NCBI GenBank assembly: GCA_964472415.1
Contig: CAYYLC010000003.1
Coordinates: 96,075 to 160,074 of the forward strand
Source: an uncultured Gammaproteobacteria bacterium
Lineage (GTDB): Bacteria; Patescibacteriota; Microgenomatia; Levybacterales; GWA1-39-11
Direction of reading: 5' to 3'
Length of the DNA: 64,000 nt
The first letter of the stretch is position 1. Each line of letters starts with the position of its first letter. The translations under genes and the position numbers were made by a program. The notes below the pieces were generated by a model that was given only the letters and a program-made list of their open reading frames with translations, made no database searches and was not told the origin of the DNA. Shown piece after piece: positions 35,845-56,276 of this stretch.

Positions 35845-35862
35845 ATTTTATGTAGCTTATTG

Positions 35863-35943
35863 TGCCCGGGAAAGGACTTGAACCTTCACACCTTTCGGTA
35901 CTGGTTCCTAAAACCAGCGCGTCTACCATTTCACCACCCGGGC
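35863..35943 (-). tRNA. tRNA-Leu (anticodon UAG), class II with long variable arm
   Basis: Reverse complement gcccgggtggtgaaatggtagacgcgctggttttaggaaccagtaccgaaaggtgtgaaggttcaagtcctttcccgggca: acceptor gcccggg/cccgggc, anticodon loop ttTAGga, variable arm taccgaaaggtgtg. Confidence 0.85.
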
Positions 35944-35984
35944 ATCGTAGGAATTATACTATGCACAAGTAAGTGATTTCCACC

Positions 35985-36527: not shown

Positions 36528-36661
36528 ACAGTGTCCCGTCTCCGGGAAGTTTTTGTAACTGTTCAAGCTTTCTCAGTACATGAAAAAACTTGAGGATTCC
36601 AAAAACTGTATTGGGGAAAAAGTAGAAGGGTCTAAATATAGATTTACTATATTCAGACCAT

Positions 36662-36698
36662 AAAAAAATCCTAAAGTAGTTTTGGGCTACCTTAGGAC
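36662..36698 (-). terminator. rho-independent terminator downstream of the 36777-37361 gene
   Basis: Hairpin cctaaagtag-ttttggg-ctaccttagg (one mismatch) with a T7 run on the minus strand (A7 at 36662-36668 on plus). Confidence 0.5.
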
Positions 36699-36776
36699 CT
36701 GTTGCGTATTGTATCAGTTGACTATAGGTTTGTCAAGGGGTAAAACTACGGGATGTAGTGCCAATTTTGAGGCTAA

Positions 36777-37361: not shown

Positions 37362-37487
37362 ACTTTAATCTGTCATTTTCACGATTTAAAGTCAAGGTGT
37401 AAGACTACTAAAAACTGTTACATACTAATAGTTTACAATATTAAACAATTGTTTTGAGGTATGAATATTGATACAATTTGAGGGTAA

Positions 37488-37571
37488 GCCGGAGTGGCGA
37501 AATGGTAGACGCGCAGTGTTCAGAACGCTGTATCCTTTGCGGATGTGGAGGTTCGAGTCCTCTCTTCGGTA
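37488..37571 (+). tRNA. tRNA-Leu (anticodon CAG), class II
   Basis: gccggagtggcgaaatggtagacgcgcagtgttcagaacgctgtatcctttgcggatgtggaggttcgagtcctctcttcggta: acceptor with two G-U pairs, anticodon loop ttCAGaa, long variable arm, GGTTCGAGTCC T-loop. Confidence 0.8.
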
Positions 37572-37702
37572 CACTAAAGCCTAAGCTTTTTGACAGATTA
37601 TTTGGCTGGATTTTTTATAACTTAAAGATTATGGGGGATTTCTACCTGTATATTTGAGTTTTAAATCTTGCGAGCATACTAAAAGTTTATTATGATAAGT
37701 GT

Positions 37703-38017
37703 ATGGCGAAGGAATTTAGTCATTCAATTCGAACCGCTTACTTCTACCTCTTTTCTGCAATTGGCGTAATTCTTCTCATAGTTGGCGTTTTTAAATTATC
37801 AGACTTTACGGTAAAGCAGGTATTTTTAGATGAGTACTATCTTCCATACGAATCTGGGCGATGTAATTATCCACAGCCTCGTGAACAGTGCATGGAAGAG
37901 CTTAAGCGGGAACGAGATCTTAAAGAAGTGACCGATGTTTCAAGCTCAATTACATTTATTGTCGTTGGGTTATTGCTTTTTGGGTTTCATTATAAGAAAG
38001 CACGAAAGCTTTCTTAA
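37703..38017 (+). CDS. small membrane protein (104 aa, two TM segments, Cys pair)
   Basis: TM1 AYFYLFSAIGVILLIVGVF, TM2 ITFIVVGLLLFGF; lies between tRNAs. Confidence 0.4.
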   Translation: MAKEFSHSIRTAYFYLFSAIGVILLIVGVFKLSDFTVKQVFLDEYYLPYESGRCNYPQPREQCMEELKRERDLKEVTDVSSSITFIVVGLLLFGFHYKKARKLS

Positions 38018-38061
38018 TCTTGAGATTTAGCTTAAAATTCTCTATACTACTCTAGTCTTTT

Positions 38062-38134
38062 GCCGAGATTGCCAAGTTGGTCAAGGCGCGTGTCTGAAGA
38101 ACACGTTATCCGGGTTCGATTCCTGGTCTCGGCA
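38062..38134 (+). tRNA. tRNA-Phe (anticodon GAA)
   Basis: gccgagattgccaagttggtcaaggcgcgtgtctgaagaacacgttatccgggttcgattcctggtctcggca: acceptor gccgaga/tctcggc, anticodon loop ctGAAga. Confidence 0.85.
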
Positions 38135-38349
38135 CAGCGAAATTTCAAGACCTCTATTTTTCGCTCTGATGAAATCAGAGCTTCAGTATCCGGTCTGAAA
38201 TTTCGCCCCTTAATCCCGCTGTGCGGGATTACAGAAATGTTTTGCATTTTTGAGAAGTCGAGAATTTTAATTTTCGAAATAAGGAATAGTGACGAAGGGT
38301 AAAGATTTTAAATTTATTTAAAACCGCCAAGCGAGGTCCATGAGGACGC

Positions 38350-38421
38350 GCGGGAATAGCTCAGTGGTAGAGCGTCTCGTTGCCAACGAGAAGGTCGAGG
38401 GTTCGAACCCCTTTTCCCGCT
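38350..38421 (+). tRNA. tRNA-Gly (anticodon GCC)
   Basis: gcgggaatagctcagtggtagagcgtctcgttgccaacgagaaggtcgagggttcgaaccccttttcccgct: acceptor gcgggaa/ttcccgc, anticodon loop ttGCCaa, discriminator U. Confidence 0.85.
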
Positions 38422-38756
38422 CCGAAATCAGAAGTATTTGTTTCTGTACTCCAAATTCATTGATCATCCTCTATTTTTAGTATAAAAGCGGTAGCTTTGT
38501 GGTTATAATAAAAAGTTATAGGATTGTATTAAGACACACCACTAGATAGGTTTTATTCTTGTAGTGTTTACTAGTATTAGTTATTGAGTTTTTGTAAAAA
38601 ATCTATTCCTCTATAAGCTTGGGGGCAAGTTTTCGCTCCTTAATATAACTGAGAAGCACAAGTGCCAAAAAAATAAAGGAGAATATTTATTCCGGAAATT
38701 CCCACCATCTCTGATGTTAAGGGTTTAGTCAGAGATAAATAATCTAAATCGATTAG

Positions 38757-38830
38757 TGGACGATGAGGGATTTGAACCCCCGACACCCTCGGTGTAAACG
38801 AGGTGCTCTAGCCAGCTGAGCTAATCGTCC
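38757..38830 (-). tRNA. tRNA-Val (anticodon UAC)
   Basis: Reverse complement ggacgattagctcagctggctagagcacctcgtttacaccgagggtgtcgggggttcaaatccctcatcgtcca: anticodon loop ttTACac. Confidence 0.85.
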
Positions 38831-39021
38831 GAATTTCGGGAATGGATTTCGTACGGTTCATTTATGATACATCATAAATTGCGCCATTTTCATCATTCCT
38901 CCTTTATTCAAAAATACTTACGCATTTTTCAGAGTCACCCCGTTTAATGGGATGAGGTAGCAAGCTGACAAGTGTGTTCGAATCTAATCGAACTAAGCAT
39001 AAAGGTCTTGCCAGTTTTGCG

Positions 39022-39103
39022 GTGGGCTTGAGAGGACTCGAACCTCCACACCTTACGGCACAGCCACCTCAAGACTGCGTGTATACCAATTTCACCACAA
39101 GCC
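39022..39103 (-). tRNA. tRNA-Leu (anticodon GAG), class II
   Basis: Reverse complement gggcttgtggtgaaattggtatacacgcagtcttgaggtggctgtgccgtaaggtgtggaggttcgagtcctctcaagccca: anticodon loop ttGAGgt, long variable arm. Confidence 0.8.
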
Positions 39104-39240
39104 CGACTTACTTTCATATTGTAGCAAAAAATTATGAGAAAACAATTATATCCTATAAGACTTGACAAATAAATAAATATCATTACAATGTAACTTTTAA
39201 GGCTTTTTGAAAAGTTTTTGAAATACTGTATAAATAGATT

Positions 39241-42655: not shown

Positions 42656-42726
42656 TGCCGAGTCGTCTAATGGTAGGACAACGGACTTTGGATCCGTTTA
42701 TTCTGGTTCGAATCCAGGCTCGGCAG
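42656..42726 (+). tRNA. tRNA-Gln (anticodon UUG)
   Basis: tgccgagtcgtctaatggtaggacaacggactttggatccgtttattctggttcgaatccaggctcggcag: U1-A72 first pair and 3-bp D-stem typical of bacterial tRNA-Gln; anticodon loop ctTTGga. Confidence 0.8.
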
Positions 42727-44409
42727 CATGATTCTACTGATAGGCTGATAATCGATCAAATTGCTTGTTATTACGGCCTTTTCTGTAGGTTCTAACGCAA
42801 ATATAATGTCCTCGATTTCTCTCTTTGCTTTCTCTATAAGAAAATATGGCCTATCTCCTGAGATTTGGAGGCTTCGATCTAGAATTGTTAGGTTCGAACC
42901 AAGTTTTGACAAAATATAGGTTTTGGTTCTAACGTCACCTGTTTCAAACTGATATTTGGCACTGCAAGCGAAGTTAAATGTCTCTTTTGACTGGAAATAC
43001 CACTCCTCTTGTTTCTTGTCCACTGAGTCAATTTGCTTCATGACATCTTTTCTCTCTTTTAGTAGTCTTTCTTCCTCATCATCGTAGAACTTCTGCATTT
43101 CAGTACCATTCGTGACGTTTTCTCTTGAGATTCTAAGTCTCGTAAGCCGCGCAAGCGCTTTATCACAGTTTTCCATCTGTTTTACAAGGTTTTCTTTAAT
43201 ACTTCTAATGTCTGTTTCTTCTTTATCATTTAGTTCATTTAAGTGATCTATGCACCAATCGCGGAACTCTTCCGTTAATTCAAATTTGTTAAGCTCTGTT
43301 TTGATCTTATCTTCAAGATTTTTCAGTGTCACACTACCTTGAGAACAAGTCTTAGTAACTCTTTTTGTGCAGTGGTAGAACACATAATGCAGCAACTTTG
43401 GATTTTTCATTTCCTCAATTAAAGTGCCACATTTAGGACAAGCATTTGTCAGTTTTCCTTTATGGAACTTTTGCTTACAAGTTGAGCAGATTATTTGCAT
43501 CTTTTCCTCAGCAGTCACACTTCCGTCACATTCACCACATTTGAGAACATGCTTATATGCGAATTCATGTCGTGCCATACGTGGCTTGCCTTTGCGTCCT
43601 AAACGCACCTGTAGTGTGTCAAATTCATCTTCAGTGAGCATTGGCTTATGTGTTCCAAATACTTCTCCTTCAGATCGCACCATGAGGCCATAATAGTAAC
43701 TATCTGTGAGGATTCTGTACCATCCAGATTTTGCCATTGGCAAACCGCCTTTACTTCCTCTTGCTCTTGATCTAAATTTCCATTTGTTATTTAGAACATC
43801 TAATGCTTCCATTGGAGTATAAGTTCCATCAATAATCAATCTCATTGCATTTTGCAGTAATGGAAATCTTTCCTCATCCACGCCTATTTTCTTTTCCTTG
43901 GTGGCTTCATCATAGTAGTTGAAGTATCCTGGCTTGGCAGGGCCGATCCATTTTTTAAGGTTGTGGAATATGTAATGGTTACCACGCTTCACATTCTTAC
44001 TCAGATTCCTGGAGTATTGGTTTGCCATTCCAAAATGAATTTGCAGAATAAGGTGATCTGAATCCTGTGTGTATCTTTCACCGTCAGTACTTCGAATTTC
44101 TTGAAGCTTTCCATCTTGTAACAGCTGGAGAAGATGTCCACCTTCCATTGGATTGCGGCACAGTCTGTCTGGCTTCCAAGTAAGAATTGCATTTATCTTA
44201 CGAGCCTCAATGAGTTCAATCATTTTTGTGAACTCTGGCCTATTGTTTGGCTTATATGCAGATTTTGACTCTTGGAAGATATGAGTAACTGTCAAATTGT
44301 CTCTATCAACTGCTTTTTTACACTCCTCATTCTGCTCGTTAATAGACATCGCCTGTTTCTCTTTTGACTCTGATGACTTTCTTGAATATTGTGCGTATAC
44401 TAGTTTCAT
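42667..44409 (-). CDS. large serine recombinase (resolvase/invertase N-domain, recombinase domain, zinc ribbon)
   Basis: 580 aa; N-terminal catalytic region VYAQYSRKSSESKEKQ...IDRLCR; CGECDGS...CSTC and CPKCG zinc ribbon; coiled-coil C-terminus. The 3' end of the ORF runs into tRNA-Gln on the opposite strand. Confidence 0.8.
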   Translation of the reverse strand: MKLVYAQYSRKSSESKEKQAMSINEQNEECKKAVDRDNLTVTHIFQESKSAYKPNNRPEFTKMIELIEARKINAILTWKPDRLCRNPMEGGHLLQLLQDGKLQEIRSTDGERYTQDSDHLILQIHFGMANQYSRNLSKNVKRGNHYIFHNLKKWIGPAKPGYFNYYDEATKEKKIGVDEERFPLLQNAMRLIIDGTYTPMEALDVLNNKWKFRSRARGSKGGLPMAKSGWYRILTDSYYYGLMVRSEGEVFGTHKPMLTEDEFDTLQVRLGRKGKPRMARHEFAYKHVLKCGECDGSVTAEEKMQIICSTCKQKFHKGKLTNACPKCGTLIEEMKNPKLLHYVFYHCTKRVTKTCSQGSVTLKNLEDKIKTELNKFELTEEFRDWCIDHLNELNDKEETDIRSIKENLVKQMENCDKALARLTRLRISRENVTNGTEMQKFYDDEEERLLKERKDVMKQIDSVDKKQEEWYFQSKETFNFACSAKYQFETGDVRTKTYILSKLGSNLTILDRSLQISGDRPYFLIEKAKREIEDIIFALEPTEKAVITSNLIDYQPISRIMLPSLDSNQNKRIQSPLSYH

Positions 44410-44451: not shown

Positions 44452-44970
44452 CTAAAAGTCAGCCTTTTCTGTTCGTAATGGTTTATCTTTCCAATTCATT
44501 TGCTTTATAAGTTTCTTTCTCCATACTTCATATTTCGCTTGACTCATCTTTTCATTTCGTTTTATTCCATTTGTATTATTAGTAGGAAGTATATTTCCTG
44601 GATGGAGTGGAACTTTAGTTCCTAAATGAGAGGAATTTCCATTCCTAATGCTTGAACCACTTTTTGCTTTTGAAGGTAAATCTCTTGTACTCTTCAAATT
44701 CCTGTGAACTGTATATGTATTCACTCGATTCCATCCTTCTCTTTTTATTTCAATCAATCCTTCCTTTTTTAGTTGCTTTAATAGAATTCTAATGTTTCTA
44801 TCACCGCATCCTAAAATTGCAGCAAGTGTTGTTTGTCCAGGAAAGCATGACTCTTTTTGATAACAATGTTTGAGCAATACAATGTATAAGAATCTTGCTT
44901 GAACTGAGAGCTGAGACACATCTAATAGTTCGTTTGGAACCATAGTAAAGTTTTTGCGTTTCATATTCAT
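44452..44970 (-). CDS. winged-helix HTH protein (replication-initiator or transcriptional-regulator-like)
   Basis: 172 aa; FTMVPNELLD...LSVQARFLYIVLLKHCYQKESCFPGQTTLAAILGCGDRNIRILLKQLKKEGLIEI resembles phage/plasmid replication HTH domains. Confidence 0.5.
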   Translation of the reverse strand: MNMKRKNFTMVPNELLDVSQLSVQARFLYIVLLKHCYQKESCFPGQTTLAAILGCGDRNIRILLKQLKKEGLIEIKREGWNRVNTYTVHRNLKSTRDLPSKAKSGSSIRNGNSSHLGTKVPLHPGNILPTNNTNGIKRNEKMSQAKYEVWRKKLIKQMNWKDKPLRTEKADF

Positions 44971-45186: not shown

Positions 45187-45960
45187 CTATTTGAGAAGAT
45201 TTTTGTATCTGCGGACTGCTTGTTTTACCATTTCATACTCTGGAATTGCATATCTATTGCGGTTCTTCTCATATTCCAATCTATTGGCCGGTGATGTTGC
45301 GGATAAGGCAATATCTGTATATCCTATGCCTTCAATATTCATCCAATACCATTCACGATCTCGTCTGAAATTGCCAGCCTTCCTATTCTTCATTCGATAG
45401 TAGTAGTTAAGTAACTTCATATGAGATTCAAAGATGTCAGGTACATTCTTTTCAAAGACTTCCTGTACATCTTTAAGTGTTGTCATTGGAGTTATGACAA
45501 TTTTTACTTCAGGTAAATCTGTATATTCTGGAGGCTTGGGTGGATCAGTTGGTTCTACTTCAATCTTTGTGTGTTGATAGCTGAAATCTCCAACAACACC
45601 ACACGCTAAAGCAAACTGAATTATCTGAGTGAAATATCCAGGCTTTTTGAATCTTTTGCATAGCTCTACTGAATCTTCTTCAAACTTCCAGAATGGCCTA
45701 TTTGTACTTCTCCATTCAAAATCTTTTGTGTCTTCAAGTGTTTGAATATCTTCATCTAGCAGTTTTATTGTCCACTTCATGAATTCCGATTCTGACATTA
45801 ACGAATTTATTCCATGCTTCTTTCTGTATTCAGGAAGCAGTCTCAGAAACTCTGGCTTATCAACAAGTAGTGCAACATCCATGTATGCAATATCATTGGT
45901 ACATTTGATGTCTATCTTTAAGTCCAGCAAATCTTTATTGTCTGCAATTCTCATTCTCAT
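45187..45960 (-). CDS. hypothetical protein (257 aa), island-borne
   Basis: Long ORF upstream of the HTH gene; no recognisable motifs. Confidence 0.4.
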   Translation of the reverse strand: MRMRIADNKDLLDLKIDIKCTNDIAYMDVALLVDKPEFLRLLPEYRKKHGINSLMSESEFMKWTIKLLDEDIQTLEDTKDFEWRSTNRPFWKFEEDSVELCKRFKKPGYFTQIIQFALACGVVGDFSYQHTKIEVEPTDPPKPPEYTDLPEVKIVITPMTTLKDVQEVFEKNVPDIFESHMKLLNYYYRMKNRKAGNFRRDREWYWMNIEGIGYTDIALSATSPANRLEYEKNRNRYAIPEYEMVKQAVRRYKNLLK

Positions 45961-46210: not shown

Positions 46211-46234
46211 TTTTAATCAGGAATGATGGAATGT
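46211..46234 (+). repeat. island motif copy ttttaatcaggaatgatggaatgt
   Basis: Its ATGATGG provides the ATG of the 46223 Xis-like ORF. Confidence 0.5.
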
Positions 46235-46480
46235 TTAATCTCTGGTATTTTGATGTTCAATTTAGTACAATTAAGCTCAACTAATATGAACGCAGAGCTT
46301 GAAGAGCTTATATCTATCCAAGAGGCAGCAAGGATTTTGAATGTCAACGTTCAAACTCTGAGGAGATGGGACAGAACAGGTGTTCTCAAAGCAGTTCGTG
46401 TAGGTACTCGGAAAGGTGTTGGTGACAGACGATACCGCAAGAGTGATATTGAGGCTTATTTGTCACGAAATAAAAAATAA
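46223..46480 (+). CDS. excisionase/MerR-like HTH DNA-binding protein
   Basis: ISIQEAARILNVNVQTLRRWDRTGVLKAVRVGTRKGVGDRRYRKSDIEAYL is a helix-turn-helix of the Xis/MerR (HTH_17) type. Start could be the internal MNAELEE at 46289. Confidence 0.6.
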   Translation: MMECLISGILMFNLVQLSSTNMNAELEELISIQEAARILNVNVQTLRRWDRTGVLKAVRVGTRKGVGDRRYRKSDIEAYLSRNKK

Positions 46481-46504: not shown

Positions 46505-47413
46505 ATGGCATTATTTACAATTACTAATAATAAGGCATCGAAAATTGCACCGATTAAAGTTGGGCTGGAGAAAGATGTACAAAAGATATTCGAAGAGAAT
46601 CTAAATGAGATTTTGAATATAACTTTTCTTGCCACTGAATACTCTACAAGTTTTGGAGGGAGAATTGATTCTCTCGGAATTGATAATAATGGTGCACCAG
46701 TCATTATTGAATATAAACGTAACCATAATGACAATGTAATCAACCAAGGCCTTTCATATCTTCGATGGTTACTAGATCATAAAGCAGATTTTGATGTATT
46801 AGCACATAAAGTAAATCCAGAAATTGAGATTGACTGGAATTCTCCACGAGTCATTTGTGTGGCTGAGAGTTATAACAAATTTGATCTGGATACTGTTGAA
46901 CTTCTTCCAATTAACATTGAACTTTTGAGATATAAAATTTATCAAAACAATCTCCTACTAGTAGAGCCAGAAACACAACAAAAAGTACGTATCTCAACCT
47001 CAAAAATTTTCAATAAAGAAAAACAAGAGAAATCAATTGGAGAAAAAGTCACTTACAAATTAGAGGATCATCTATCTGGTATCAGTTCGAAAGCAAAGGA
47101 AATATTTGAAGAGGTAAATGAAAAAATTGTTGCACTTGATGAGTCAATTATTGTTGAGCCAAAAGCGAAATATATTGCCTATAAATTGACAACAAATTTT
47201 GTTGATATTGTTGTAAAGCAATACGGCCTCAAAATTTTTCTAAATGTTCCAAGTGGTGAACTGAATGATCCTCATGGTATGGCACGTGATCTCACAAAGC
47301 CAAAACCTATTGGACACTGGGGTAATGGAGACTACGAAGTAAAAATTGAAACACAAGAGGATATAGAAAAAGTATTTGATCTAATCAAGCAAAGTTATTC
47401 ATTCAATAAATAA
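46505..47413 (+). CDS. PD-(D/E)xK-type nuclease (restriction-endonuclease-like N-domain with DUF5655-like C-terminal region), candidate R subunit
   Basis: GRIDSLGIDNNGAPVIIEYKR is a D...(D/E)xK core. The stop at 47413 lies 3 bp from the methyltransferase start (translational coupling). Confidence 0.5.
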   Translation: MALFTITNNKASKIAPIKVGLEKDVQKIFEENLNEILNITFLATEYSTSFGGRIDSLGIDNNGAPVIIEYKRNHNDNVINQGLSYLRWLLDHKADFDVLAHKVNPEIEIDWNSPRVICVAESYNKFDLDTVELLPINIELLRYKIYQNNLLLVEPETQQKVRISTSKIFNKEKQEKSIGEKVTYKLEDHLSGISSKAKEIFEEVNEKIVALDESIIVEPKAKYIAYKLTTNFVDIVVKQYGLKIFLNVPSGELNDPHGMARDLTKPKPIGHWGNGDYEVKIETQEDIEKVFDLIKQSYSFNK

Positions 47414-47415
47414 AT

Positions 47416-48504
47416 ATGAGTTCAAAATCATTAAATTCAAATTTACACAAAGCAAGTAAAGCAAAAAAGGATGAGTTTTATACTCAACTTACAGATATTG
47501 AAAAAGAGCTTCGACACTATAAAGATCAATTCAAAGGCAAAGTTGTTTACTGCAACTGTGATGATCCTTTCGAAAGTAACTTCTTCAAATACTTCGCTTC
47601 CAATTTCAACGCACTAGGACTTAAAAAACTAATAACTACTAGTTTTTCAGGCTCACCAATCACTGGAAAGCAACTTTCTCTATTGGACATGGAAGGACTA
47701 AAACCTAAAGGAAAACAGCCATTCAAGATTGAGATTACTAATGTACCAGACAAGAATACTGATGGTGCTATCGACTTAACAGATGTGGAATGGCTATTAA
47801 AACAAGACACGAATGTATCCACTCCTCTTAAAGAAAGCGGAGACTTTAGAAGTGAAGAATGTATAGACTTACTCAAGCAATCAGATATTGTGGTAACTAA
47901 TCCACCATTCTCACTCTTTCGAGAATATATTGCTCAACTTATTGAGTATGAAAAAAAGTTTTTGATTATCGGAAATTTGAATGGAATAAGCTATCAAGAA
48001 ATATTTAAGTTAATCCAAGGCAATAGGCTTTGGCTAGGTTACAATAATGGACACAAAACTTACTTAGTTCCAGATTATTATGAGCAAAAGAATATATATG
48101 TCGGTGAGGATGGTAAAAAGTATGCCAAAATGGGAAATACAGGATGGTTTACAAATCTAGATATTAGCAAACGTCACGAAATGCTTACTCTTTATAAAAG
48201 ATATAATCCGCAAGACTTTCCACAGTACGACAACTATGACGCAATTGAAGTATCAAAAGTATTAGAAATTCCGTTAGATTATAATGGCATTATGGGTGTG
48301 CCAGTAACATTTCTTGACAAATATAATCCAGAACAATTTGAAATATTAGGGATTACTGATAGAAATCCTAAGAGCAAATATAGAACAAAAATGTATACCA
48401 AGGCTGACTCACCAATGTATAACGACTTAAACAGACGTGCAGCAATTAAATTTGATGGTAAATTAAAACCTACATATGCTCGATTGCTGATAAAGAAAAA
48501 ATGA
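47416..48504 (+). CDS. N6-adenine (or N4-cytosine) DNA methyltransferase
   Basis: DEFYTQL N-terminal motif, catalytic motif IV VVTNPPFS (NPPF), candidate AdoMet-binding region KVVYCNCDDPFES. Confidence 0.7.
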   Translation: MSSKSLNSNLHKASKAKKDEFYTQLTDIEKELRHYKDQFKGKVVYCNCDDPFESNFFKYFASNFNALGLKKLITTSFSGSPITGKQLSLLDMEGLKPKGKQPFKIEITNVPDKNTDGAIDLTDVEWLLKQDTNVSTPLKESGDFRSEECIDLLKQSDIVVTNPPFSLFREYIAQLIEYEKKFLIIGNLNGISYQEIFKLIQGNRLWLGYNNGHKTYLVPDYYEQKNIYVGEDGKKYAKMGNTGWFTNLDISKRHEMLTLYKRYNPQDFPQYDNYDAIEVSKVLEIPLDYNGIMGVPVTFLDKYNPEQFEILGITDRNPKSKYRTKMYTKADSPMYNDLNRRAAIKFDGKLKPTYARLLIKKK

Positions 48505-48505
48505 T

Positions 48506-49609
48506 ATGAAAATTGAATTACACAAAATAAAAGTTCGTGAAGTGGTTGAAGGATACAAAGACAATGCTGAAGAAGGTGTTGTAGGATATGGTGGCGAACT
48601 TGATATTCGCCCTAAGTATCAGCGTGAATTCGTTTACAAAGACGCTCAGCGTGATGCAGTGATAGATACTGTCAAGAATGGCTTTCCTCTTAATGTCATG
48701 TATTGGGTAGTGCGTGAAGATGGTGGATATGAAGTCCTTGATGGACAGCAACGCACAATCTCGCTTGCACAATATGTAAATGGAGACTTTTCCATAGACT
48801 TTAATGGTAGGCTGGCAATGTTTCATAACTTAACTCCAGAAGAACAAAACCAGATTTTAGATTATGAGTTGATGATCTACTTTTGTGAAGGTACAGACAA
48901 AGAACGCCTTGATTGGTTTAGGATCATTAACATTGCTGGTGAGAAATTAACAGATCAAGAATTGAGAAATGCAGTATATACAGGGCCATGGCTTTCTGAC
49001 GCAAAACTTAAATTCAGTAAATCAAATTGCGTAGCATATCTTCTTTCAAATGACGGAGGTGCGTTACTCTCTGGATCACCAATAAGACAGGAATATTTAG
49101 AAACAGTACTTTCGTGGATCAATAATGGTGCAATTGAGGATTATATGGCACGTCATCAACATGATGAAAATGCCGATGAGCTATGGAATTATTTTCAAGA
49201 AGTAATCGCTTGGGTGAGAAAAACATTCTCAAACTACAGAAGAGAGATGGCAAGCGTGAATTGGGGTGAACTATACAATCAATTCAAGGATCATGAACTA
49301 AATCCTGAAAAACTGGAAGCTGAAATAAAAGTACTCATGCAGGATGAAGATGTTACAAAAAAGAGCGGTATTTATCCTTACGTTTTGACTCGTCTTGAAA
49401 AATATCTATCTATTAGAGCTTTTACTGACAAAATGAGACGAGAGGCATATGAGAGGCAAAATGGCGTATGTCCATTCTGCAAAAATAAATTTGAAATTGA
49501 AGAAATGGAAGCAGATCATATTACTCCATGGCATGAAGGTGGAAAAACAACTGCTGACAACTGTCAAATGCTTTGCAAACAAGATAATAGAACAAAATCT
49601 GGTGTGTAA
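48506..49609 (+). CDS. DUF262 (ParB/GmrS-like NTPase) - HNH endonuclease fusion, GmrSD-like candidate type IV or modification-dependent nuclease
   Basis: N-terminal DUF262 with DGQQRT motif; C-terminal HNH CPFCKNKFEIEEMEADHITPWHEGGKTTADNCQMLCKQDN. Start 2 bp after the methyltransferase stop. Confidence 0.65.
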   Translation: MKIELHKIKVREVVEGYKDNAEEGVVGYGGELDIRPKYQREFVYKDAQRDAVIDTVKNGFPLNVMYWVVREDGGYEVLDGQQRTISLAQYVNGDFSIDFNGRLAMFHNLTPEEQNQILDYELMIYFCEGTDKERLDWFRIINIAGEKLTDQELRNAVYTGPWLSDAKLKFSKSNCVAYLLSNDGGALLSGSPIRQEYLETVLSWINNGAIEDYMARHQHDENADELWNYFQEVIAWVRKTFSNYRREMASVNWGELYNQFKDHELNPEKLEAEIKVLMQDEDVTKKSGIYPYVLTRLEKYLSIRAFTDKMRREAYERQNGVCPFCKNKFEIEEMEADHITPWHEGGKTTADNCQMLCKQDNRTKSGV

Positions 49610-49656
49610 GTTGTATTGAATTAAAAATATGCTAAATCTGCCTATTATTACGAATA

Positions 49657-51273
49657 ATGAAAATATCGAAAATTATTGTTCAGAACTATAGATCAATTGA
49701 AAGGGTTGAGGTTAATCCAAGCAAATTTTCCATCTTTATCGGACAAAACAATCACGGCAAAACAAATTTCTTTGAGGCAATTGAATGGTTCTACAATTCC
49801 AAGTCATCAAATGAAGAAGAATATTGTAGAAAAGATTCAGACAATAAAATTCAAGTTGAGATAACTTTTGATGATGTTCTAGAAACAGACATTGAAAAAC
49901 TTACTTCTGATACCAATAAAACTAAAATTAGAAATATTTTGAATGGCTCTACTTCATTCTCTGTAATCAAATCAAGTACAGATCATAAAAGAAAATACTT
50001 TGTTAATGGTGAAGATAAAGGTAATCCTCAAGGACTAGACACTGCCATCAATGAATTTTTACCTAAGCTCGAATATGTTAATACTTCAATAAGATTAAAT
50101 GACGTTTCAAAATACAAAGACAGAAATCCTATTGGAACAATGCTTTCTGGCGTTCTCACTGCCATTATTGAAACATCACAAGACTACATTGAATTTAAGC
50201 AAACCTTCACAAAGTTATTTGACAATGCAGACTCAGAAGTTAGAAAAGAGCTTGATAAGTTAGGCGGACAAGTTGAAGTATATCTTCAGAAACAATTTCC
50301 AGGTGATACTAAGGTAAAGTTTGGTGTTAATCCACCTCATTTTACTGACTTATTAAAAAGTTTTGATACATCAATAAATGATGGAATTGAAACAACTGCT
50401 GAGGCAAAAGGTGATGGTATGCAAAGAGCAATAATGCTTTCAATTATCCAAGCATTTGCTGACTATCGTAAGAAGCAAATTGGTGGTGGAACTTTTCTGT
50501 TTATGATTGATGAAGCGGAATTGCACCTTCATCCAACTGCACAACGTTCTCTAAAGAATGCCTTATTAGACATATGTCAAACAGATCAAGTACTGGTAAA
50601 TACTCACTCCTCTGTTTTGGTTGTTGATAACAATGAACTTCAGAAGATTTTCAAGGTTGAAAAAACTGATGGAGTAACAAATATAGATGAGGTTGATGAT
50701 CTTGAGAAGATAAACATTATCTTCGAATTACTTGGTGGAAGTCCTTCCGATCTATTATTGCCAAGGAACTTTCTAATAGTAGAAGGAAAATGTGAATACG
50801 AATTCATCAAAATCATTATTGAACGTTATTATCGTGACAAATTTGATGGAATTAAGGTTTTATTTGCTGGAGGTGACTTGGATGAGCAAGAATCATCATT
50901 GCTCGCAGTCCACAAACTCTTTAATCCATTAGCTGGATCAGACAATCCAATTTATAAGGAAAGAGCTATTGTTTTAATAGACAAGCAAAATGGAGATCAG
51001 CAACATAAATTTGAAGCTTTTAAGCAAGGTTATCCTTATTTATTCAGCAATAATCATGTTTTTGAATTAACTACTACAACTCTGGAAGAATATTATCCAG
51101 ATGCATATAAGAAGAATGCTGCTGAGATCGCTCAACTGCAAGCAGACAGAAAAAAAGTTGAATATGCTAAAGAAGTTGCGTCAAAGATTACACAAGAGGA
51201 ATTTGAAAATGATATGCAGATAATATTCCAAGCACTTACTAAGTGTAATGAATGCGCTTTTAATCCGAAATAA
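49657..51273 (+). CDS. OLD-family protein: ABC/AAA_15-type ATPase with C-terminal TOPRIM-like nuclease region
   Basis: IVQNYRSIE...FIGQNNHGKTNFFEAIEWF (GxNxxGKT Walker A of the OLD/AAA_15 type), Q-loop region, Walker B/D-loop FLFMIDEAELHLHP, then FLIVEGKCEYEFI...VLIDKQNGD consistent with the TOPRIM conserved Glu and DxD. Confidence 0.7.
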   Translation: MKISKIIVQNYRSIERVEVNPSKFSIFIGQNNHGKTNFFEAIEWFYNSKSSNEEEYCRKDSDNKIQVEITFDDVLETDIEKLTSDTNKTKIRNILNGSTSFSVIKSSTDHKRKYFVNGEDKGNPQGLDTAINEFLPKLEYVNTSIRLNDVSKYKDRNPIGTMLSGVLTAIIETSQDYIEFKQTFTKLFDNADSEVRKELDKLGGQVEVYLQKQFPGDTKVKFGVNPPHFTDLLKSFDTSINDGIETTAEAKGDGMQRAIMLSIIQAFADYRKKQIGGGTFLFMIDEAELHLHPTAQRSLKNALLDICQTDQVLVNTHSSVLVVDNNELQKIFKVEKTDGVTNIDEVDDLEKINIIFELLGGSPSDLLLPRNFLIVEGKCEYEFIKIIIERYYRDKFDGIKVLFAGGDLDEQESSLLAVHKLFNPLAGSDNPIYKERAIVLIDKQNGDQQHKFEAFKQGYPYLFSNNHVFELTTTTLEEYYPDAYKKNAAEIAQLQADRKKVEYAKEVASKITQEEFENDMQIIFQALTKCNECAFNPK

Positions 51274-51276
51274 ATT

Positions 51277-52032
51277 ATGTCTCAATACTACAATCCAAAT
51301 CGAAAAAGAAACCTGTACGATCCTCACTCACCTGAGTTATTCCGCTTGAGTCGAGGAAAGATTGATAACTTCATCAATTGTCCACGGTGTTTTTATTTGG
51401 ACAGGCGTCTTGGTGTTGGACAGCCGCCAGGTTATCCATTTTCGCTCAATTCTGCAGTTGATAAGCTCTTGAAGAAAGAATTTGATGTTCATAGAGTAAA
51501 TGGCTCAAAACATCCACTGTGCGATAAATATGGTGTTGATGCAGTTCCGCTATCACACGATAAGATTGATGAATGGCGTGACTCTTTAAGAGGTGGAATT
51601 ACAGTTCACATTGACAGCACGAATGTTGTCATTACTGGTGGCGTGGATGATATTTGGATTTCACCAGAAGGTGAATACATTATTGTTGACTACAAGGCCA
51701 CATCTAAAGATGGTGAAGTATCACTGGATGCTGACTGGCAAATTGGATATAAGCGGCAAATGGAAATATATCAATGGCTTTTTAGGAAAAATGGCTTCAA
51801 AGTGGCTGATACTGGATATTTTGTCTACTGTAATGGAAATACTGACAAAGAAGCATTTGATGGAATGCTTGAATTTGAGATCAAACTCATTCCATACACT
51901 GGTAACACAGATTGGGTAGAAAAGACGATCCTGGACGCAATCAGGTGCCTCCAGAGCGATGTTTTACCTGAGCCTGGACAGGATTGTGACTTTTGTAAAT
52001 ACAGACAAGCTGTGAAGGAATTTGAAGATTAA
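51277..52032 (+). CDS. Cas4/RecB-like PD-(D/E)xK nuclease with four Cys (CxxC at each end)
   Basis: NCPRCFYLD (N-terminal CxxC), GGVDDIW...EGEYIIVDYKAT (D...E...DxK), KRQMEIYQWL (QxxxY motif of the RecB nuclease family), C-terminal CDFCKY. Start 3 bp after the OLD-like gene stop. Confidence 0.65.
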   Translation: MSQYYNPNRKRNLYDPHSPELFRLSRGKIDNFINCPRCFYLDRRLGVGQPPGYPFSLNSAVDKLLKKEFDVHRVNGSKHPLCDKYGVDAVPLSHDKIDEWRDSLRGGITVHIDSTNVVITGGVDDIWISPEGEYIIVDYKATSKDGEVSLDADWQIGYKRQMEIYQWLFRKNGFKVADTGYFVYCNGNTDKEAFDGMLEFEIKLIPYTGNTDWVEKTILDAIRCLQSDVLPEPGQDCDFCKYRQAVKEFED

Positions 52033-52139
52033 ATAGGGCTGGGTCGTGGTGAAAACACCACCTCGGCTTGTTCCGCTGACACCTTAAATCAATTTGCTAC
52101 ATCACGCCTCGCTGGTGTTTTTACCACATTTCTTAATAG

Positions 52140-52396: not shown

Positions 52397-52420
52397 TTTT
52401 AATCAGAAATGATGAAATTG
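52397..52420 (+). repeat. island motif copy ttttaatcagaaatgatgaaattg
   Basis: 33 bp upstream of the CPBP protease start. Confidence 0.5.
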
Positions 52421-52452: not shown

Positions 52453-53334
52453 ATGAAATTATCTAAGTATCAGCTACCTATTTTCTTCTTCCTTGCTTTT
52501 GCCATCACTTGGACTGCGCAAATCACAGCATATTTATATGCATTTCCAAACGACATAAATCTTACCAATGAATCCAATTTCCTAAATTTTGTGAATATTG
52601 GCGGTTTGCCGCCTGGCTTTCTTCCATACTTGCTTCTTTTCTCCTTCTCTTTCGGGCCAACGGTTGCTGGAATCATTGTTACTTACTGGTTTTATGGCAA
52701 TAAAGGCATGCGAGGAATACTTGATCAACTATTCGCGATTAGATTGCCTGGTAAATGGTATTTATTGGCAATAACAATTCCAGTTGGACTTGTACTTGCA
52801 AGCCTTTTGCTAGGCTTTGTCTTAAGTGGCTTTCAGTCAATTCAGTATGAGTTTCTTGTTCCATTGTCTCTATTTATTCCATTCTTCCTGTATATGACTA
52901 TATTTACAGGACTTGCGGAGGAAGTTGGTTGGCGAGGATATGCGCTTCCACAGCTTCAAAAAAAATATACTGCTGAGAAAGCAAGCTGGATATTAGGTAT
53001 TGCATGGGGACTTTGGCATTTACCTGTAAATCTGATGGTGCCATTTCTGTCAGGCAATTTACAAATACCATATATTGTGATGATCCTACTCGCGTTAACT
53101 CTTGGTATTGCAGGTTGGACAATTGTCCTTACATGGTTTTATAACAACACAAAGAGTCTCTTTCTCATCATATTCATTCATGGATTTATGAATACACTTC
53201 AGTCATATCTCATATTGTCCTCTAACAATCAGATTGCACCTATGCTTTATGGCATACTGCCATGGATAGTAGCAACATATCTTTTGAAAAAGTACGGAGG
53301 TAAGACACTATTGGTTCCTTCGAATAAACAGTGA
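52453..53334 (+). CDS. CPBP-family intramembrane glutamic protease (CAAX protease / Abi domain)
   Basis: Multi-TM protein with EEVGWRGY (EExxxR), FxxxH (LWHL) and HGFMN motifs. Confidence 0.75.
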   Translation: MKLSKYQLPIFFFLAFAITWTAQITAYLYAFPNDINLTNESNFLNFVNIGGLPPGFLPYLLLFSFSFGPTVAGIIVTYWFYGNKGMRGILDQLFAIRLPGKWYLLAITIPVGLVLASLLLGFVLSGFQSIQYEFLVPLSLFIPFFLYMTIFTGLAEEVGWRGYALPQLQKKYTAEKASWILGIAWGLWHLPVNLMVPFLSGNLQIPYIVMILLALTLGIAGWTIVLTWFYNNTKSLFLIIFIHGFMNTLQSYLILSSNNQIAPMLYGILPWIVATYLLKKYGGKTLLVPSNKQ

Positions 53335-53346
53335 AATTCAATAACT

Positions 53347-53802
53347 ATGAATATAAAAAGCCTTTGGAGTAAAATAAACAGTCGATTACAGAAACAGTGG
53401 ATTGCGTGCAGACTGGTATCAGATAGGAAAAGTGTTCAATATGGCATTCGCTTTAGCTATCCGCTCTTCATAGCAATTGTATTAATAAGTATATTTCTGG
53501 AAAATCCTTTTATATTACTATTTGCTGCTCTGATTGCTTTTTTTGGCATGAAATTACCATTACATCCTTTTGACTATGTTTATAGCTATGGAATTGCGAA
53601 GCTAATAGGAGTTAATAAAATACCTGGTAGAGGATCAGAGTTGCAGGTTAACAGTATTGTGGCGCTTATATTTACCTTGTTTGTAAGTGTTTTGATACTT
53701 TTTAGAGTTCCAATCAATTATTCTATGCTTGCTATTATTTATCTTGTGAGCAATATCTTCATACTTGGAATGTTCTTGATAAAGAAGGATTCAAGGAAGT
53801 AA
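53347..53802 (+). CDS. hypothetical polytopic membrane protein (151 aa)
   Basis: Four hydrophobic segments; follows the CPBP gene by 12 bp. Confidence 0.4.
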   Translation: MNIKSLWSKINSRLQKQWIACRLVSDRKSVQYGIRFSYPLFIAIVLISIFLENPFILLFAALIAFFGMKLPLHPFDYVYSYGIAKLIGVNKIPGRGSELQVNSIVALIFTLFVSVLILFRVPINYSMLAIIYLVSNIFILGMFLIKKDSRK

Positions 53803-53816
53803 TAAACCAAGTCGCT

Positions 53817-53912
53817 TTTAATCAGCAGTGATGGAATTCATCAAAAACTAGGCTGAAAAGCAGGTTGGAATGGTTGTTTTGTATTGATAAAATAGGTTCT
53901 AACAGCGTCTAC
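53817..53912 (+). repeat. ~95-bp direct repeat, left copy (ttttaatcagcagtgatggaattcatc ... aatggttgttttgtattgataaaataggttctaacagcgtct)
   Basis: Contains the island motif plus a second conserved block; a similar copy lies at 56008-56092 on the other side of the surface-protein gene. Confidence 0.6.
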
Positions 53913-53974
53913 TAGACACAGCTGAGTAAGCTTTCAAGCCTTGGTTACATTTGGCTAATCTAAAGAGGCATACT

Positions 53975-55924
53975 TTAACATCCTACCCTTAGTACTTGCC
54001 CTATGTTAAGAAGCGTAGAGCTTAGGTTATTTTTCTGCATTAAATCTGAGTATTTGGTACCTGATTCTAGGTTTTGGGAGGCGATAGTCCACAGATTGTC
54101 TCCTGGCTGCACCACATAATCCTGACATTCTTTTACAGACACTGTCGTTGCTTCCAGATCACCATTTCCACTGCCTGCATTAGTTACTCGTCTAGGAAAT
54201 ACAGACAAAATTCTCGATACAAAGTTTTTGTAATACGATGTTGCTTTTGATGACGAGTTACTCGTTGTTGCTGTCATTGTATTTCCCCACTCTCCAGGCA
54301 TGCAGCCGTTGCCACCTCTGACTACGAATGAATACTTAGAATTAGGAGATAAGGCATTAACAGTATACGAAAGCACTCCATTTGATACTCCTGTTTCAAA
54401 CTCTACTCCATACATATTAGTACTTTCTCCATTCCCATAAGCGATGAAGTACTTATGTGCATCTGATATAGGTGCAAAGTAAAGAGTGGCTTGTGTATTA
54501 TTCGTATCTATTTGGAAAAGATTAGGTGTGTTCAGTGGCCTAGTATCTGCGCACGTTGGAGCTGATGGTGAGGAAATGTCAGGTGACGAATTAGTGTTGT
54601 TTGATTGTAGTATAGGTTTGGGTGTAGGTGTACTGGTAGGTTCAGGTGTGGGAGTATTTGTCGGAGTTAGCGTTGGAGATGGAGTACCGGTTGGCGTTGG
54701 CGTCGGAGAATTTGTCGGTGTTGGGGTAGGTGTATTGGTTGGAGTTGGTGTGGGAGTAGTCTCAGGAGCGTCCTCTTCCAATGCAAATTTCAGATTGTTG
54801 TTGGTATTATCATAGTAGCTGATTCTGGCAAACCCGTCACTGCCCACCGCCAGAGAAGCGGGCAACCCTACATCTCCGTCTGCATCAACAATGCTGGTTT
54901 CTTTCTGTGTACAGTCATCATTAGCACATCTAATAAACTTGAGATCAGAGTTAGTATGATCTCGATAAGCTATCCTTGCATAGCCATCATCTCCTACTGC
55001 AATGGACGTATGTAGCCCTACAAATCCGTCTGAATCAAGGGTTGCAATATTACTTTCTGAACAATCAGCATTGGTGCATTGTGCAAATTTGAGATCGCCA
55101 TTTGTCCCATCATAGTAGCTGATTTTAGCAAAACCGTCACTGCCCATGGCAAGGGAAAGATGCGATCCTACGCCTCCTGAGTCAACAGTGGAGACATTTT
55201 TATTTGAACAATCGGCATTGGTGCATTGTAAAAATTTGAAATCATCAGTTATCTCATCGTAGTAGCTGATTCTGGCAAAACCGTCACTGTTCAAGGCAAG
55301 GGAGGAATAATATGGGTACGCACCTGAGTCAAGGGTTGCAACGTTACTTTCTGAACAATCGGCATTGGTGCACTGAGCAAACATCAATAGAGTATTCATG
55401 AATTCAAAATACAGAATCCGCGCAAAGCCGTCACTGCCCATGGCAATGGAAGGGTACCACTCCGTATTACGTTCAGGATCTATGGCGGTGACAGACTTTG
55501 ATGAACAATCGGCATTAGTACACGCGATTAAATACATCTCTTCAAATATAGATTTAGAATAGACGATCCGAGCAAATCCATCGTTACCCATGGCGAGGGA
55601 GTTATTTTGGACCTGTAATAACCCGCCCGTGTCAAACCACGATAATCCTGTGGCAACCGTGGTGATATTTTTTTCTGAACAATCGGCATTGGTGCACTGA
55701 ACAAATTTCAGCTCAGCAGTAACAAAGTCAGTATAGACGATCCGAGCAAATCCATCGTTACCCATGGCGAGGGAAATATCTTCTCCTATATCGCTAACCG
55801 AGTCAACAGCTTCAATTTTCCAGGCACTGGCGGCATTGACCGGCTGCGTAGGTAGAAACGAAGTACTCAAAAGTGAGATGAGAAAGAATGCTATGGTGAA
55901 AATGCTGAATAATTTTTTTTGCAT
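53975..55924 (-). CDS. secreted surface protein: signal peptide, seven ~47-aa CTNADCS repeats, Pro/Thr-rich linker, beta-rich domain, C-terminal LysM
   Basis: MQKKLFSIFTIAFFLISLLS signal. Seven repeats of consensus LAMGxDGFARIxYxDxxxxDLKFxQCTNADCSxxNxxTxDSxG. The 54590-54780 DNA is a PT-repeat (TPTPTPTNTPTPTPTNSPTPTPTG...). C-terminal YVVQPGDNLWTIASQ...LNIGQVLRV is LysM. Confidence 0.7.
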   Translation of the reverse strand: MQKKLFSIFTIAFFLISLLSTSFLPTQPVNAASAWKIEAVDSVSDIGEDISLAMGNDGFARIVYTDFVTAELKFVQCTNADCSEKNITTVATGLSWFDTGGLLQVQNNSLAMGNDGFARIVYSKSIFEEMYLIACTNADCSSKSVTAIDPERNTEWYPSIAMGSDGFARILYFEFMNTLLMFAQCTNADCSESNVATLDSGAYPYYSSLALNSDGFARISYYDEITDDFKFLQCTNADCSNKNVSTVDSGGVGSHLSLAMGSDGFAKISYYDGTNGDLKFAQCTNADCSESNIATLDSDGFVGLHTSIAVGDDGYARIAYRDHTNSDLKFIRCANDDCTQKETSIVDADGDVGLPASLAVGSDGFARISYYDNTNNNLKFALEEDAPETTPTPTPTNTPTPTPTNSPTPTPTGTPSPTLTPTNTPTPEPTSTPTPKPILQSNNTNSSPDISSPSAPTCADTRPLNTPNLFQIDTNNTQATLYFAPISDAHKYFIAYGNGESTNMYGVEFETGVSNGVLSYTVNALSPNSKYSFVVRGGNGCMPGEWGNTMTATTSNSSSKATSYYKNFVSRILSVFPRRVTNAGSGNGDLEATTVSVKECQDYVVQPGDNLWTIASQNLESGTKYSDLMQKNNLSSTLLNIGQVLRVGC

Positions 55925-56007: not shown

Positions 56008-56092
56008 ACATCATCAGGAACGATGGAAACCAAAAGAATACTCACAAAAATGGTTGTTTCATATTGATAAAATAGGTTCTAACACTGTCTGC
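56008..56092 (+). repeat. ~90-bp direct repeat, right copy (catcaggaacgatggaaacc ... aatggttgtttcatattgataaaataggttctaacactgtct)
   Basis: About 75-80 percent identical to 53817-53912; the block ATTGATAAAATAGGTTCTAACA is identical in both. Confidence 0.6.
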
Positions 56093-56276
56093 CAAGCACA
56101 ACAAAGCCCATCAACACCGCTGCTGTTTGTAATTTACGATACTGAAAAACTTCTGGAAATAGAATAGAATCATTCCATGACTACTTTTTCCTATTTATTA
56201 TAGGTAGCTTATTGTTACTCGTGTTTTTAATCTATCTATCATATTTCTAAATAGATAAATTAAGGAGGTGATACAT

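Follow-up and report, generated by a model that had tools for sequence, protein, structure and literature searches.

A putative EcoRI-family methylase/DUF262-HNH restriction-modification unit in a five-gene defense block of a Patescibacteria-like genome

Introduction

The DUF262 nucleases studied so far (GmrSD, BrxU, and SspE) depend on or sense DNA modification, and SspE, which senses phosphorothioate, shows that such a nuclease can depend on a modification system of its host. Class 1 OLD nucleases are defined by the absence of a partner gene and have been described as lying away from other defense genes (2023 review, PMC10568477). The PDC families were built from genes embedded in other defense systems and comprise experimentally untested candidates (Payne et al., bioRxiv 10.1101/2024.01.29.577857). 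Here, we analyze a block of five plus-strand genes, at positions 46505 to 52032 of a stretch of 64,000 nucleotides (the window), that combines relatives of such proteins with an EcoRI-family methyltransferase and a Cas4-like nuclease. The window covers positions 96,075 to 160,074 of the forward strand of contig CAYYLC010000003.1 (GenBank assembly GCA_964472415.1), from an uncultured bacterium that is labeled Gammaproteobacteria and placed in the Patescibacteriota (Levybacterales) by the Genome Taxonomy Database. An earlier note, made from the sequence alone, had paired the first gene with the methyltransferase as a type II restriction-modification (R-M) system and had considered the third and fourth genes as Septu-like partners. 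We consider it likely that the block is instead a mosaic of independent defense modules sharing one vehicle and probably one transcript, in which the methyltransferase and the DUF262-HNH nuclease are the R-M core.

Results

Layout of the five-gene block

The block consists of five open reading frames (ORFs), numbered here as genes 1 to 5 in 5'-to-3' order:

46505 to 47413, plus strand: gene 1 (302 amino acids [aa]), PDC-S18 candidate nuclease (PADLOC, AlphaFold, Foldseek, invariant residues)
47416 to 48504, plus strand: gene 2 (362 aa), EcoRI-family N6-adenine DNA methyltransferase (PF13651, PADLOC MTase_II, context counts)
48506 to 49609, plus strand: gene 3 (367 aa), DUF262 plus zinc-ribbon HNH protein (PADLOC REase_II, GmrSD_N, HNH, invariant motifs, context counts)
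49657 to 51273, plus strand: gene 4 (538 aa), OLD-family ABC ATPase-Toprim protein (PADLOC Old, GajA and Thermus OLD [TsOLD] 6p74 matches, conserved residues, variable contexts)
51277 to 52032, plus strand: gene 5 (251 aa), solo Cas4-like PD-(D/E)xK nuclease (PDDEXK_1, Cas4 models, four invariant cysteines)

The co-directional and tightly packed arrangement described in the earlier note was recovered to the base, with intergenic spacings of 2, 1, 47, and 3 bp. Its view of the block as a defense island and all five of its domain assignments were borne out by Pfam, PADLOC, and NCBIfam profiles and by conserved residues. The catalytic residues of all four nucleases and of the methyltransferase are intact. 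An identical five-gene order is present in three independent public assemblies (ENA, JGI, and Logan), of which a 192-kb ENA contig is the longest.

The region between 46 and 51 kb has a GC content of 33 to 35%, compared with about 38 to 40% in the rest of the window. A simple consensus scan found no terminator-like site on the plus strand within the block, and a promoter scan yielded 40 sites versus 44 expected. Genome-wide, 46% of the co-directional neighbor pairs are separated by at most 50 bp and 26% by at most 5 bp. The packing of the block is tighter than this genome average, yet it is weak evidence for joint function on its own, because tight spacing is widespread in this compact genome and says little about functional coupling.

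Genes 2 and 3 as a candidate restriction-modification unit

Gene 2 matches the EcoRI methylase family across the whole profile (PF13651 EcoRI_methylase, 5e-142) as well as PADLOC MTase_II (5e-124), and an NPPF motif is found in its translation; a sequence search of the PDB with gene 2 gave no match. The product of gene 3 contains a DUF262 domain (GmrSD_N/DUF262, 2e-17) and an HNH domain (PF01844, 1e-12, and HNH_5), and no Pfam match to DUF1524 was found in it. From end to end, it also matches the PADLOC model REase_II PDLC03418 (1.2e-143). The residues that are invariant among its relatives comprise the DGQQR motif (D79, G80, Q81, Q82, and R83), D337-H338, N352, N361, and the four cysteines of a zinc ribbon of the form CxxC...CxxxC. 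Similarity of the HNH region to the PADLOC PtuB models is weak (about 6e-4), and a profile search of PDB sequences with gene 3 returned generic HNH matches only. An AlphaFold model of gene 3 reached a predicted local distance difference test (pLDDT) score of 55 (35 sequences, 79 to 90% identical to the query) and was not used for fold searches.

Homologues of gene 3 number more than 8,000; they are frequent in Patescibacteria and occur on plasmids across phyla. We compared the gene neighborhoods in the best 80 of 334 confirmed stretches from species-representative genomes, mostly of Patescibacteria, whose restriction genes are 76 to 89% identical to gene 3 (loci are referred to below by L numbers). 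An EcoRI-family methylase gene lies upstream of the gene 3 relative and on the same strand in 72 of these 80 loci; in each of the eight loci that do not show it, the available upstream DNA is shorter than 1 kb. The methylase gene and the gene 3 relative are directly adjacent in 57 of 71 loci, most commonly with a gap of 1 bp, as in the window. The other 14 have an insertion of 0.4 to 4.4 kb between the two genes (L010/L004, L011, L013, L022, L023, L026, L056, L057, L059, L068, L075, L082, L084, and L085), so that the junction of the methylase and restriction genes seems to accept embedded genes. The insertion in L004 is a gene for a 927-aa LmuB-like SMC ATPase. As for the other genes of the block, gene 4 is represented in none of the 80 loci, gene 1 in one (34% identity), and gene 5 in five.

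The same pair, at 48 to 62% identity, is annotated by NCBI on plasmids of cultured Bacillota, Pseudomonadota, and Actinomycetota, where an "adenine-specific methyltransferase EcoRI family protein" stands beside a "DUF262 domain-containing protein." On the 7.5-kb plasmid pLa3_1, the annotated genes encode a MerR regulator, the methyltransferase, the DUF262 protein, and Rep. A small helix-turn-helix (HTH) gene precedes the methylase-restriction pair on this plasmid and in L006 to L008, L016, and L062. The possibility that the HTH_17 gene at the head of the block is a dedicated R-M controller displaced by gene 1 was rejected as a rule, because a similar HTH gene is directly upstream of the methylase in only 2 of 71 surveyed loci.

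From these comparisons of sequence and gene context, we conclude that genes 2 and 3 are a predicted R-M unit in which gene 3 is the putative restriction partner of the methylase. Gene 3 is read as a restriction enzyme because a methylase is nearby in every locus with enough upstream DNA, and such constant linkage would be the need of a toxic restriction enzyme, not of a type IV enzyme. The earlier note had found it unusual that a methylase should share an operon with a modification-dependent nuclease; this paradox disappears if gene 3 is the methylase's own restriction enzyme, as its full-length match to REase_II also indicates. Its suggestion that the DUF262-HNH protein has a role other than type IV thus holds in that the protein would be the methylase's restriction partner, but not in the Septu-like partnership with the OLD ATPase that had been proposed as an example. 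A literature search found no paper on an R-M system that combines an EcoRI-family methylase with a restriction enzyme of the DUF262-HNH type.

Avoidance of palindromes was examined as a possible pointer to the recognition site, with GAATTC counted in L009 to L088 and L148 to L175. The ratio of observed to expected occurrences is 0.77 in the gene 3 loci versus 1.02 in controls; other loci of candidate phyla radiation (CPR) type are likewise depleted, with a pooled ratio of 0.47. Counts fall below expectation in 52 of 63 gene 3 loci; the same is true of all 11 of the other CPR-type loci. This suggests that GAATTC is widely selected against in these lineages. For GTTAAC, the contrast is stronger than for GAATTC.

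Several metagenome-assembled genomes labeled as Gammaproteobacteria, Pseudomonadales, Bdellovibrionales, or "archaeon" (among them L009, L010, L013, L045, L046, and L049) carry restriction genes that are 78 to 89% identical to gene 3. This similarity points either to very recent horizontal transfer or to mislabeled or misbinned genomes.

Gene 1 and its contexts

Over its full length (residues 1 to 299), gene 1 matches the PADLOC PDC-S18 models PDLC04946 (3e-98) and PDLC04945 (4e-78), and there is a DUF5655 match plus a weak match to NucS_C. Its AlphaFold model (pLDDT of 79) has two domains. In Foldseek searches, the N-terminal domain resembled NucS/EndoMS, the Shedu nuclease SduA, and the LlaBIII nuclease, and the C-terminal domain (DUF5655) resembled YjbR, YdhG, DUF1801, and frataxin-like proteins. 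D55, E69-x-K71, and Q81..Y85 are invariant in the family. According to the model, gene 1 has a nuclease fold, with a NucS/Shedu-like PD-(D/E)xK domain and a frataxin-like C-terminal domain, which upholds its assignment as a nuclease in the earlier note. A PDB sequence search with gene 1 found no match, and a search of the literature returned nothing on PDC-S18 and nothing relevant on DUF5655.

Eleven contexts of gene 1 and its relatives were examined, including that of the window; in seven of them, the gene is part of, or adjacent to, an R-M locus of type I, II, or III. In Cupriavidus, Acinetobacter baumannii, and Acinetobacter towneri, the relative is embedded in a type I system, with hsdS on one side and hsdR on the other, and in Rhizobium it adjoins a divergently oriented type I system. 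A relative with 80% identity heads a type III operon in L154, 4 bp upstream of another methylase, and in Saccharobesus the neighbors are fragments of an R-M locus; in the window, gene 1 heads a type II operon. The remaining four contexts place the gene beside recombinases or alone. The R-M-linked contexts fit the origin of the family, because the PDC models derive from embedded genes.

On the A. towneri plasmid pNDM_SCLZS30 (L183), the order is hsdM, hsdS, an HNH endonuclease gene, PDC-S18, PDC-S26, and hsdR, i.e., three nuclease genes inside one type I R-M operon, a counterpart in a cultured organism of the stacking in the window. The PD-(D/E)xK gene beside PDC-S18 at this locus was considered as a relative of gene 5 and rejected; it is PDC-S26 and unrelated.

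Gene 4 and its contexts

Gene 4 matches PADLOC Old (2e-62) and AAA_15. PDB sequence matches are to GajA and the Thermus OLD protein 6p74, and the alignments reach the Toprim EGxxE motif. The Walker A and B motifs, the signature motif, and the acidic Toprim residues E376, E380, D407, D442, and E477 are conserved. The Toprim assignment rests on the GajA and TsOLD alignments, the Pfam Toprim model giving no match in gene 4.

We inspected 46 metagenome loci with relatives that are 42 to 82% identical to gene 4. Neither gene 1 nor gene 3 was found in any of them, and gene 5 was represented in one (25% identity); no conserved neighbor of gene 4 was found across the 46 loci. Relatives are found in a type I system, where hsdM and hsdR flank the gene, in a type III-like operon, and beside an nSTAND3-Mrr gene. 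Gene 4 in the window and its relatives in L091, L100, and L103 lie within defense operons. In the window, gene 4 is flanked by genes 3 and 5, with no UvrD helicase, retron reverse transcriptase, or AriB partner, and an Rfam search revealed no retron RNA in the window. On the published context-based scheme, gene 4 is a class-1-like OLD nuclease without a fixed partner.

Gene 5 and its contexts

Gene 5 matches PDDEXK_1 (5e-14) and Cas4 models (about 1e-10). Against TIGR00372 (Cas4), it scores 36.7 bits, below the cut-off of 65. Its family shares the invariant residues C35, C38, C237, C240, D125, D138-x-K140, and Q161..Y165. No CRISPR-like repeat array was found in the window and no cas genes among the neighbors of gene 5, and a PDB sequence search with gene 5 gave no match.

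More than 8,000 relatives of gene 5 were found, the best-scoring of which are about 80% identical. In 16 independent contexts, with relatives 48 to 83% identical (mostly at least 55%, with 48% at a single viral locus), the gene 5 relative directly follows another gene at a distance of -4 to +47 bp, and at least 14 different genes occupy this upstream position. These upstream genes encode the OLD protein (window), PDC-S06 (two contexts), LmuB-like SMC ATPases (L160 and L162), 830-aa DUF262 proteins, a UvrD/GajB-like helicase, an AbiP2 reverse transcriptase, FRG (PDC-S15), DUF3644 (PDC-S19), and SLATT proteins, a DUF262-HNH restriction enzyme, a UPF0047 protein, and proteins without a match. Gene 5 relatives follow R-M operons of types I, II, and III. 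The PDC-S06 ATPase is followed by the Cas4-like gene after 2 bp both in L009 (9177 to 12571) and in L172 (2359 to 5762); the two ATPases (878 and 879 aa) are 80% identical to each other. PDC-S06 may form a two-gene system with the Cas4-like gene.

Mobile-element backbone and surroundings

The block is flanked by features of a putative mobile element:

42656 to 42727, plus strand: tRNA-Gln(UUG), overlapping the 3' end of the integrase ORF (ARAGORN; Rfam tRNA, 62 bits)
42667 to 44409, minus strand: large serine recombinase of 580 aa (Pfam Resolvase, 4e-20; PHROG integrase, 1e-45)
44452 to 44970, minus strand: HTH_36 replication-initiator-like protein (Pfam HTH_36, 4e-9; PHROG replication-initiation families, about 1e-13)
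45187 to 45960, minus strand: 257-aa backbone protein (no match in Pfam, PADLOC, NCBIfam, or PHROGs)
46286 to 46480, plus strand: excisionase/MerR-type HTH_17 protein (HTH_17, 9e-13; TIGR01764 excisionase; PHROG excisionase)
46211 to 46232, 52397 to 52418, and 53816 to 53837, plus strand: 22-nt motif TTTTAATCAGNANTGATGRAAT (three matches versus 0.03 expected)
52046 to 52127, plus strand: hairpin with 15-bp arms GTGGTGAAAACACCA ... TGGTGTTTTTACCAC, 13 bp downstream of the gene 5 stop codon

The block is probably the cargo of a small integrative element. Matches of the serine recombinase to XisF/Ccr-like NCBIfam models are below their cut-offs. The tRNA-Gln gene is the probable integration target at the left edge of the element; no second copy of its 3' half was found in the window, and a lone 3' half fits the chemistry of serine integrases. 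The HTH_17 gene, which starts at 46223 in the mechanical ORF list and at 46286 in public gene calls, heads the plus-strand operon.

The hairpin downstream of gene 5 has a folding energy of -29.3 kcal/mol (z = -2.7), and none of 200 shuffled sequences folded as well; it is possibly the operon terminator or an end of the element. Copies 1 and 2 of the motif TTTTAATCAGNANTGATGRAAT bracket the stretch from the HTH gene to gene 5, and copies 2 and 3 bracket an Rce1-like gene and a 151-aa ORF. Among all loci retrieved, those with the motif are all copies of this contig. The motif could serve as a promoter or operator, or it could mark a cassette boundary.

To the right of the island, positions 52453 to 53802 (plus strand) encode an intramembrane protease of the CPBP/Rce1 type (PF02517) and a membrane protein of 151 aa; the element may carry both as additional cargo. 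A minus-strand gene (53975 to 55924), whose 649-aa LysM product contains repeated CTNADCS units and a linker rich in Thr and Pro, lies between the copies of a 52-nt direct repeat (85% identical; 53869 to 53920 and 56049 to 56100). Upstream of the island, a cluster of seven tRNA genes (two for Val, three for Leu, and one each for Phe and Gly) extends from 31246 to 39104.

Discussion

In the likely reading of the block as a mosaic around an R-M core, the EcoRI-family methyltransferase would mark host adenines, and the DUF262-HNH protein would cut DNA without this mark through its HNH domain. By analogy with GmrSD, BrxU, and SspE, the ParB-like DGQQR/DUF262 domain may serve as a nucleotide-dependent DNA-sensing or clamping module. 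Gene 4 would act alone, by ATP-modulated DNA nicking or as an exonuclease, like the OLD proteins of P2, Thermus, and Vibrio, and genes 1 and 5 would be additional candidate nucleases around the R-M core. Genes 1, 4, and 5 would be independently mobile layers sharing promoter and vehicle, not subunits of a single machine.

Several points weigh against this reading. The relatives of gene 3 are more conserved than the methylase in 98.7% of 2,346 pairwise comparisons; for L009 to L088 and window positions 47416 to 49609, the mean pairwise identity is 0.80 for the restriction enzyme and 0.62 for the methylase, the reverse of the usual pattern in type II systems. The DUF262 nucleases studied so far are, as stated above, modification-dependent or modification-sensing, and a literature search revealed no report on the enzymology or methylome of the R-M family of genes 2 and 3. 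An integrated system would also be compatible with the spacing of 1 to 3 bp and with the absence of terminator-like sites inside the block. L154 repeats the order PDC-S18, R-M, AAA_15 ATPase, in this case with a type III system, and the pair of PDC-S06 and a gene 5 relative follows a type II R-M system in L009 and a type III R-M system in L172. As for the element, no att sites and no right boundary were found, and its edges share no direct or inverted repeat of at least 12 nt.

One alternative is that genes 1, 4, and 5 are functionally tied to the R-M unit as a second line of defense, which might fire when a phage inhibits restriction or process the DNA ends made by restriction. PrrC, PARIS, and P2 Old respond to anti-defense proteins in this manner. 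All three accessory families recur in or beside varied types of R-M systems: gene 1 in 7 of 11 contexts, gene 4 relatives between hsdM and hsdR and in type III-like operons, and gene 5 relatives after systems of types I, II, and III. The gene order in L154 and the gaps of 1 to 3 bp without an internal terminator-like site also speak for such a link, and Payne et al. raise the possibility that ABC ATPase-Toprim systems are a second line of defense triggered by anti-restriction proteins (bioRxiv 10.1101/2024.01.29.577857). However, the same families also occur without an R-M neighbor (L148, L151, L176, L163, L158, and L100), none of them consistently co-occurs with another, and the AAA_15 protein of L154 is only remotely similar to gene 4 (33% identity over 52 residues). 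Moreover, embedding in defense operons is a general habit that implies no coupling (bioRxiv 10.1101/2024.01.29.577857). Some functional coupling of the accessory genes to R-M is possible, as their contexts suggest, but we regard an integrated system as rather unlikely.

Genes 4 and 5 might also form a two-gene system of their own, analogous to Gabija or to an ABC ATPase with an effector nuclease. Although they are separated by only 3 bp and gene 5 relatives often follow large ABC- or SMC-type ATPases (PDC-S06 in L009 and L172; LmuB-like proteins in L160 and L162), gene 5 relatives equally follow reverse transcriptase, UvrD helicase, DUF262, FRG, SLATT, and DUF3644 genes. A gene 5-like neighbor, with 25% identity, is present in only 1 of 46 gene 4 loci, and gene 4 carries a nuclease domain of its own. 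A dedicated pairing of the two genes is unlikely on these counts.

It is still less probable that gene 3 is a true type IV nuclease of the GmrSD kind, with the methylase as an unrelated or self-protective passenger or with SspE-like sensing of self-methylation. The combination of DUF262 (DGQQR) with a His-Me nuclease is the architecture of GmrSD, BrxU, and SspE, SspE provides a precedent for dependence on a host modification, and the higher conservation of the restriction enzyme is unlike classical type II systems. Nevertheless, all 72 loci that could be assessed, as well as small plasmids, link gene 3 to one and the same methylase family, the REase_II model is matched over the full length, and the C-terminal domain is HNH (PF01844) with a zinc ribbon instead of DUF1524. 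Cutting of the N6-methyladenine made by its operon partner would, moreover, kill the cell.

The pairing proposed at the outset, with genes 1 and 2 as a type II system of a PD-(D/E)xK nuclease and an NPPF methylase and genes 3 and 4 as a Septu-like HNH/ATPase pair, is very improbable: the intact fold of gene 1, its end 2 bp before the methylase, the 80% identical relative 4 bp upstream of a different methylase in L154, and the weak PtuB match of gene 3 (about 6e-4) would fit it, but it is largely refuted by the co-occurrence counts, with gene 1 beside the gene 2/3 pair in only 1 of 80 loci and otherwise inside complete type I systems that have their own nuclease or alone, gene 3 as the constant partner of the methylase, genes 3 and 4 never together outside this contig (0 of 80 and 0 of 46, the check that the earlier note had called for), and a Toprim nuclease domain within gene 4 itself.

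A further claim, which is possible but doubtful as a whole, joins two proposals. First, the EcoRI-methylase/DUF262-HNH pair may be a distinct class of R-M system, whose nuclease is built like a type IV enzyme and is nucleotide dependent but is blocked, not triggered, by methylation; a restriction enzyme that is more conserved than its methylase would fit such a mechanistically distinct class. Second, gene 5 may be a shared accessory or effector nuclease, a family that diverse defense genes recruit as the last gene of their operons. Together with genes 1 and 4, it could be an R-M-linked second line of defense.

The island is an ordinary defense island, a new combination of catalogued kinds of modules, and it illustrates the stacking of defense genes on a small, probably mobile element in a reduced, Patescibacteria-like genome. 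Its analysis corrects the attractive reading in which the methylase shares its operon with a type IV nuclease or a Septu hybrid. If the DUF262-HNH protein is the restriction enzyme of this very widespread R-M pair, it would extend the known roles of ParB-like DUF262 domains. The Cas4-like nuclease, which is highly conserved and repeatedly comes last behind unrelated defense genes, provides a testable lead to a shared accessory function.

Comparison with known systems

With Septu (PtuA and PtuB), the block shares an ABC ATPase that neighbors an HNH nuclease, and the ATPase domain of gene 4 matches PtuA models; however, the two genes stand in the opposite order, the HNH protein goes with the methylase, and outside this contig the two families were never found together. 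The same ATPase domain also matches the GajA models of Gabija (GajA and GajB), but the downstream gene encodes a 251-aa PD-(D/E)xK nuclease and there is no UvrD helicase in the block. Like the class 1 OLD proteins of P2 (Old), Thermus scotoductus, and Vibrio cholerae, gene 4 is a single ABC ATPase-Toprim polypeptide (538 aa) without a UvrD, reverse transcriptase, or AriB partner. It differs from them in that it and its relatives are located inside R-M operons, and it shows little sequence similarity to TsOLD (3e-9, limited to the central part).

Gene 1 resembles the PDC-S18 family of Payne et al. ("guilt-by-embedding") in its full-length match and in the position of its relatives between hsdS and hsdR, but it heads a type II operon and is not nested in a type I, BREX, or DISARM system. 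Gene 5 has the PD-(D/E)xK core, the QxxxY motif, and the size (about 250 aa) of Cas4/RecB nucleases (solo Cas4), and its four conserved cysteines could hold a metal or an iron-sulfur cluster. In contrast to Cas4, it has no cas genes or CRISPR array in the window, stays under the TIGR00372 cut-off, shows a CxxC...CxxC pattern, and is the last gene after many unrelated defense-type genes.

The closest counterparts of genes 2 and 3 are type II R-M systems with an HNH enzyme and a PF13651 N6-adenine methylase, with which they share adjacency, common orientation, and the NPPF methylase. As in those systems, gene 3 is never seen without a methylase where upstream DNA suffices, and the pair is carried by plasmids and integrative elements, sometimes with an upstream HTH gene. 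Unlike them, gene 3 carries at its N terminus a ParB-like DUF262 domain of the kind typical of type IV enzymes, and it belongs to a family that is more conserved than the methylase (0.80 versus 0.62). With GmrSD, BrxU, and SspE (DUF262 plus DUF1524), gene 3 has in common the N-terminal DUF262 domain with DGQQR, a C-terminal His-Me finger nuclease, and its location in defense islands. Its C terminus, however, is an HNH domain whose zinc ribbon has the form CxxC...CxxxC, its length is about half of theirs, and its apparently obligatory linkage to a methylase argues for cleavage that is blocked by modification.

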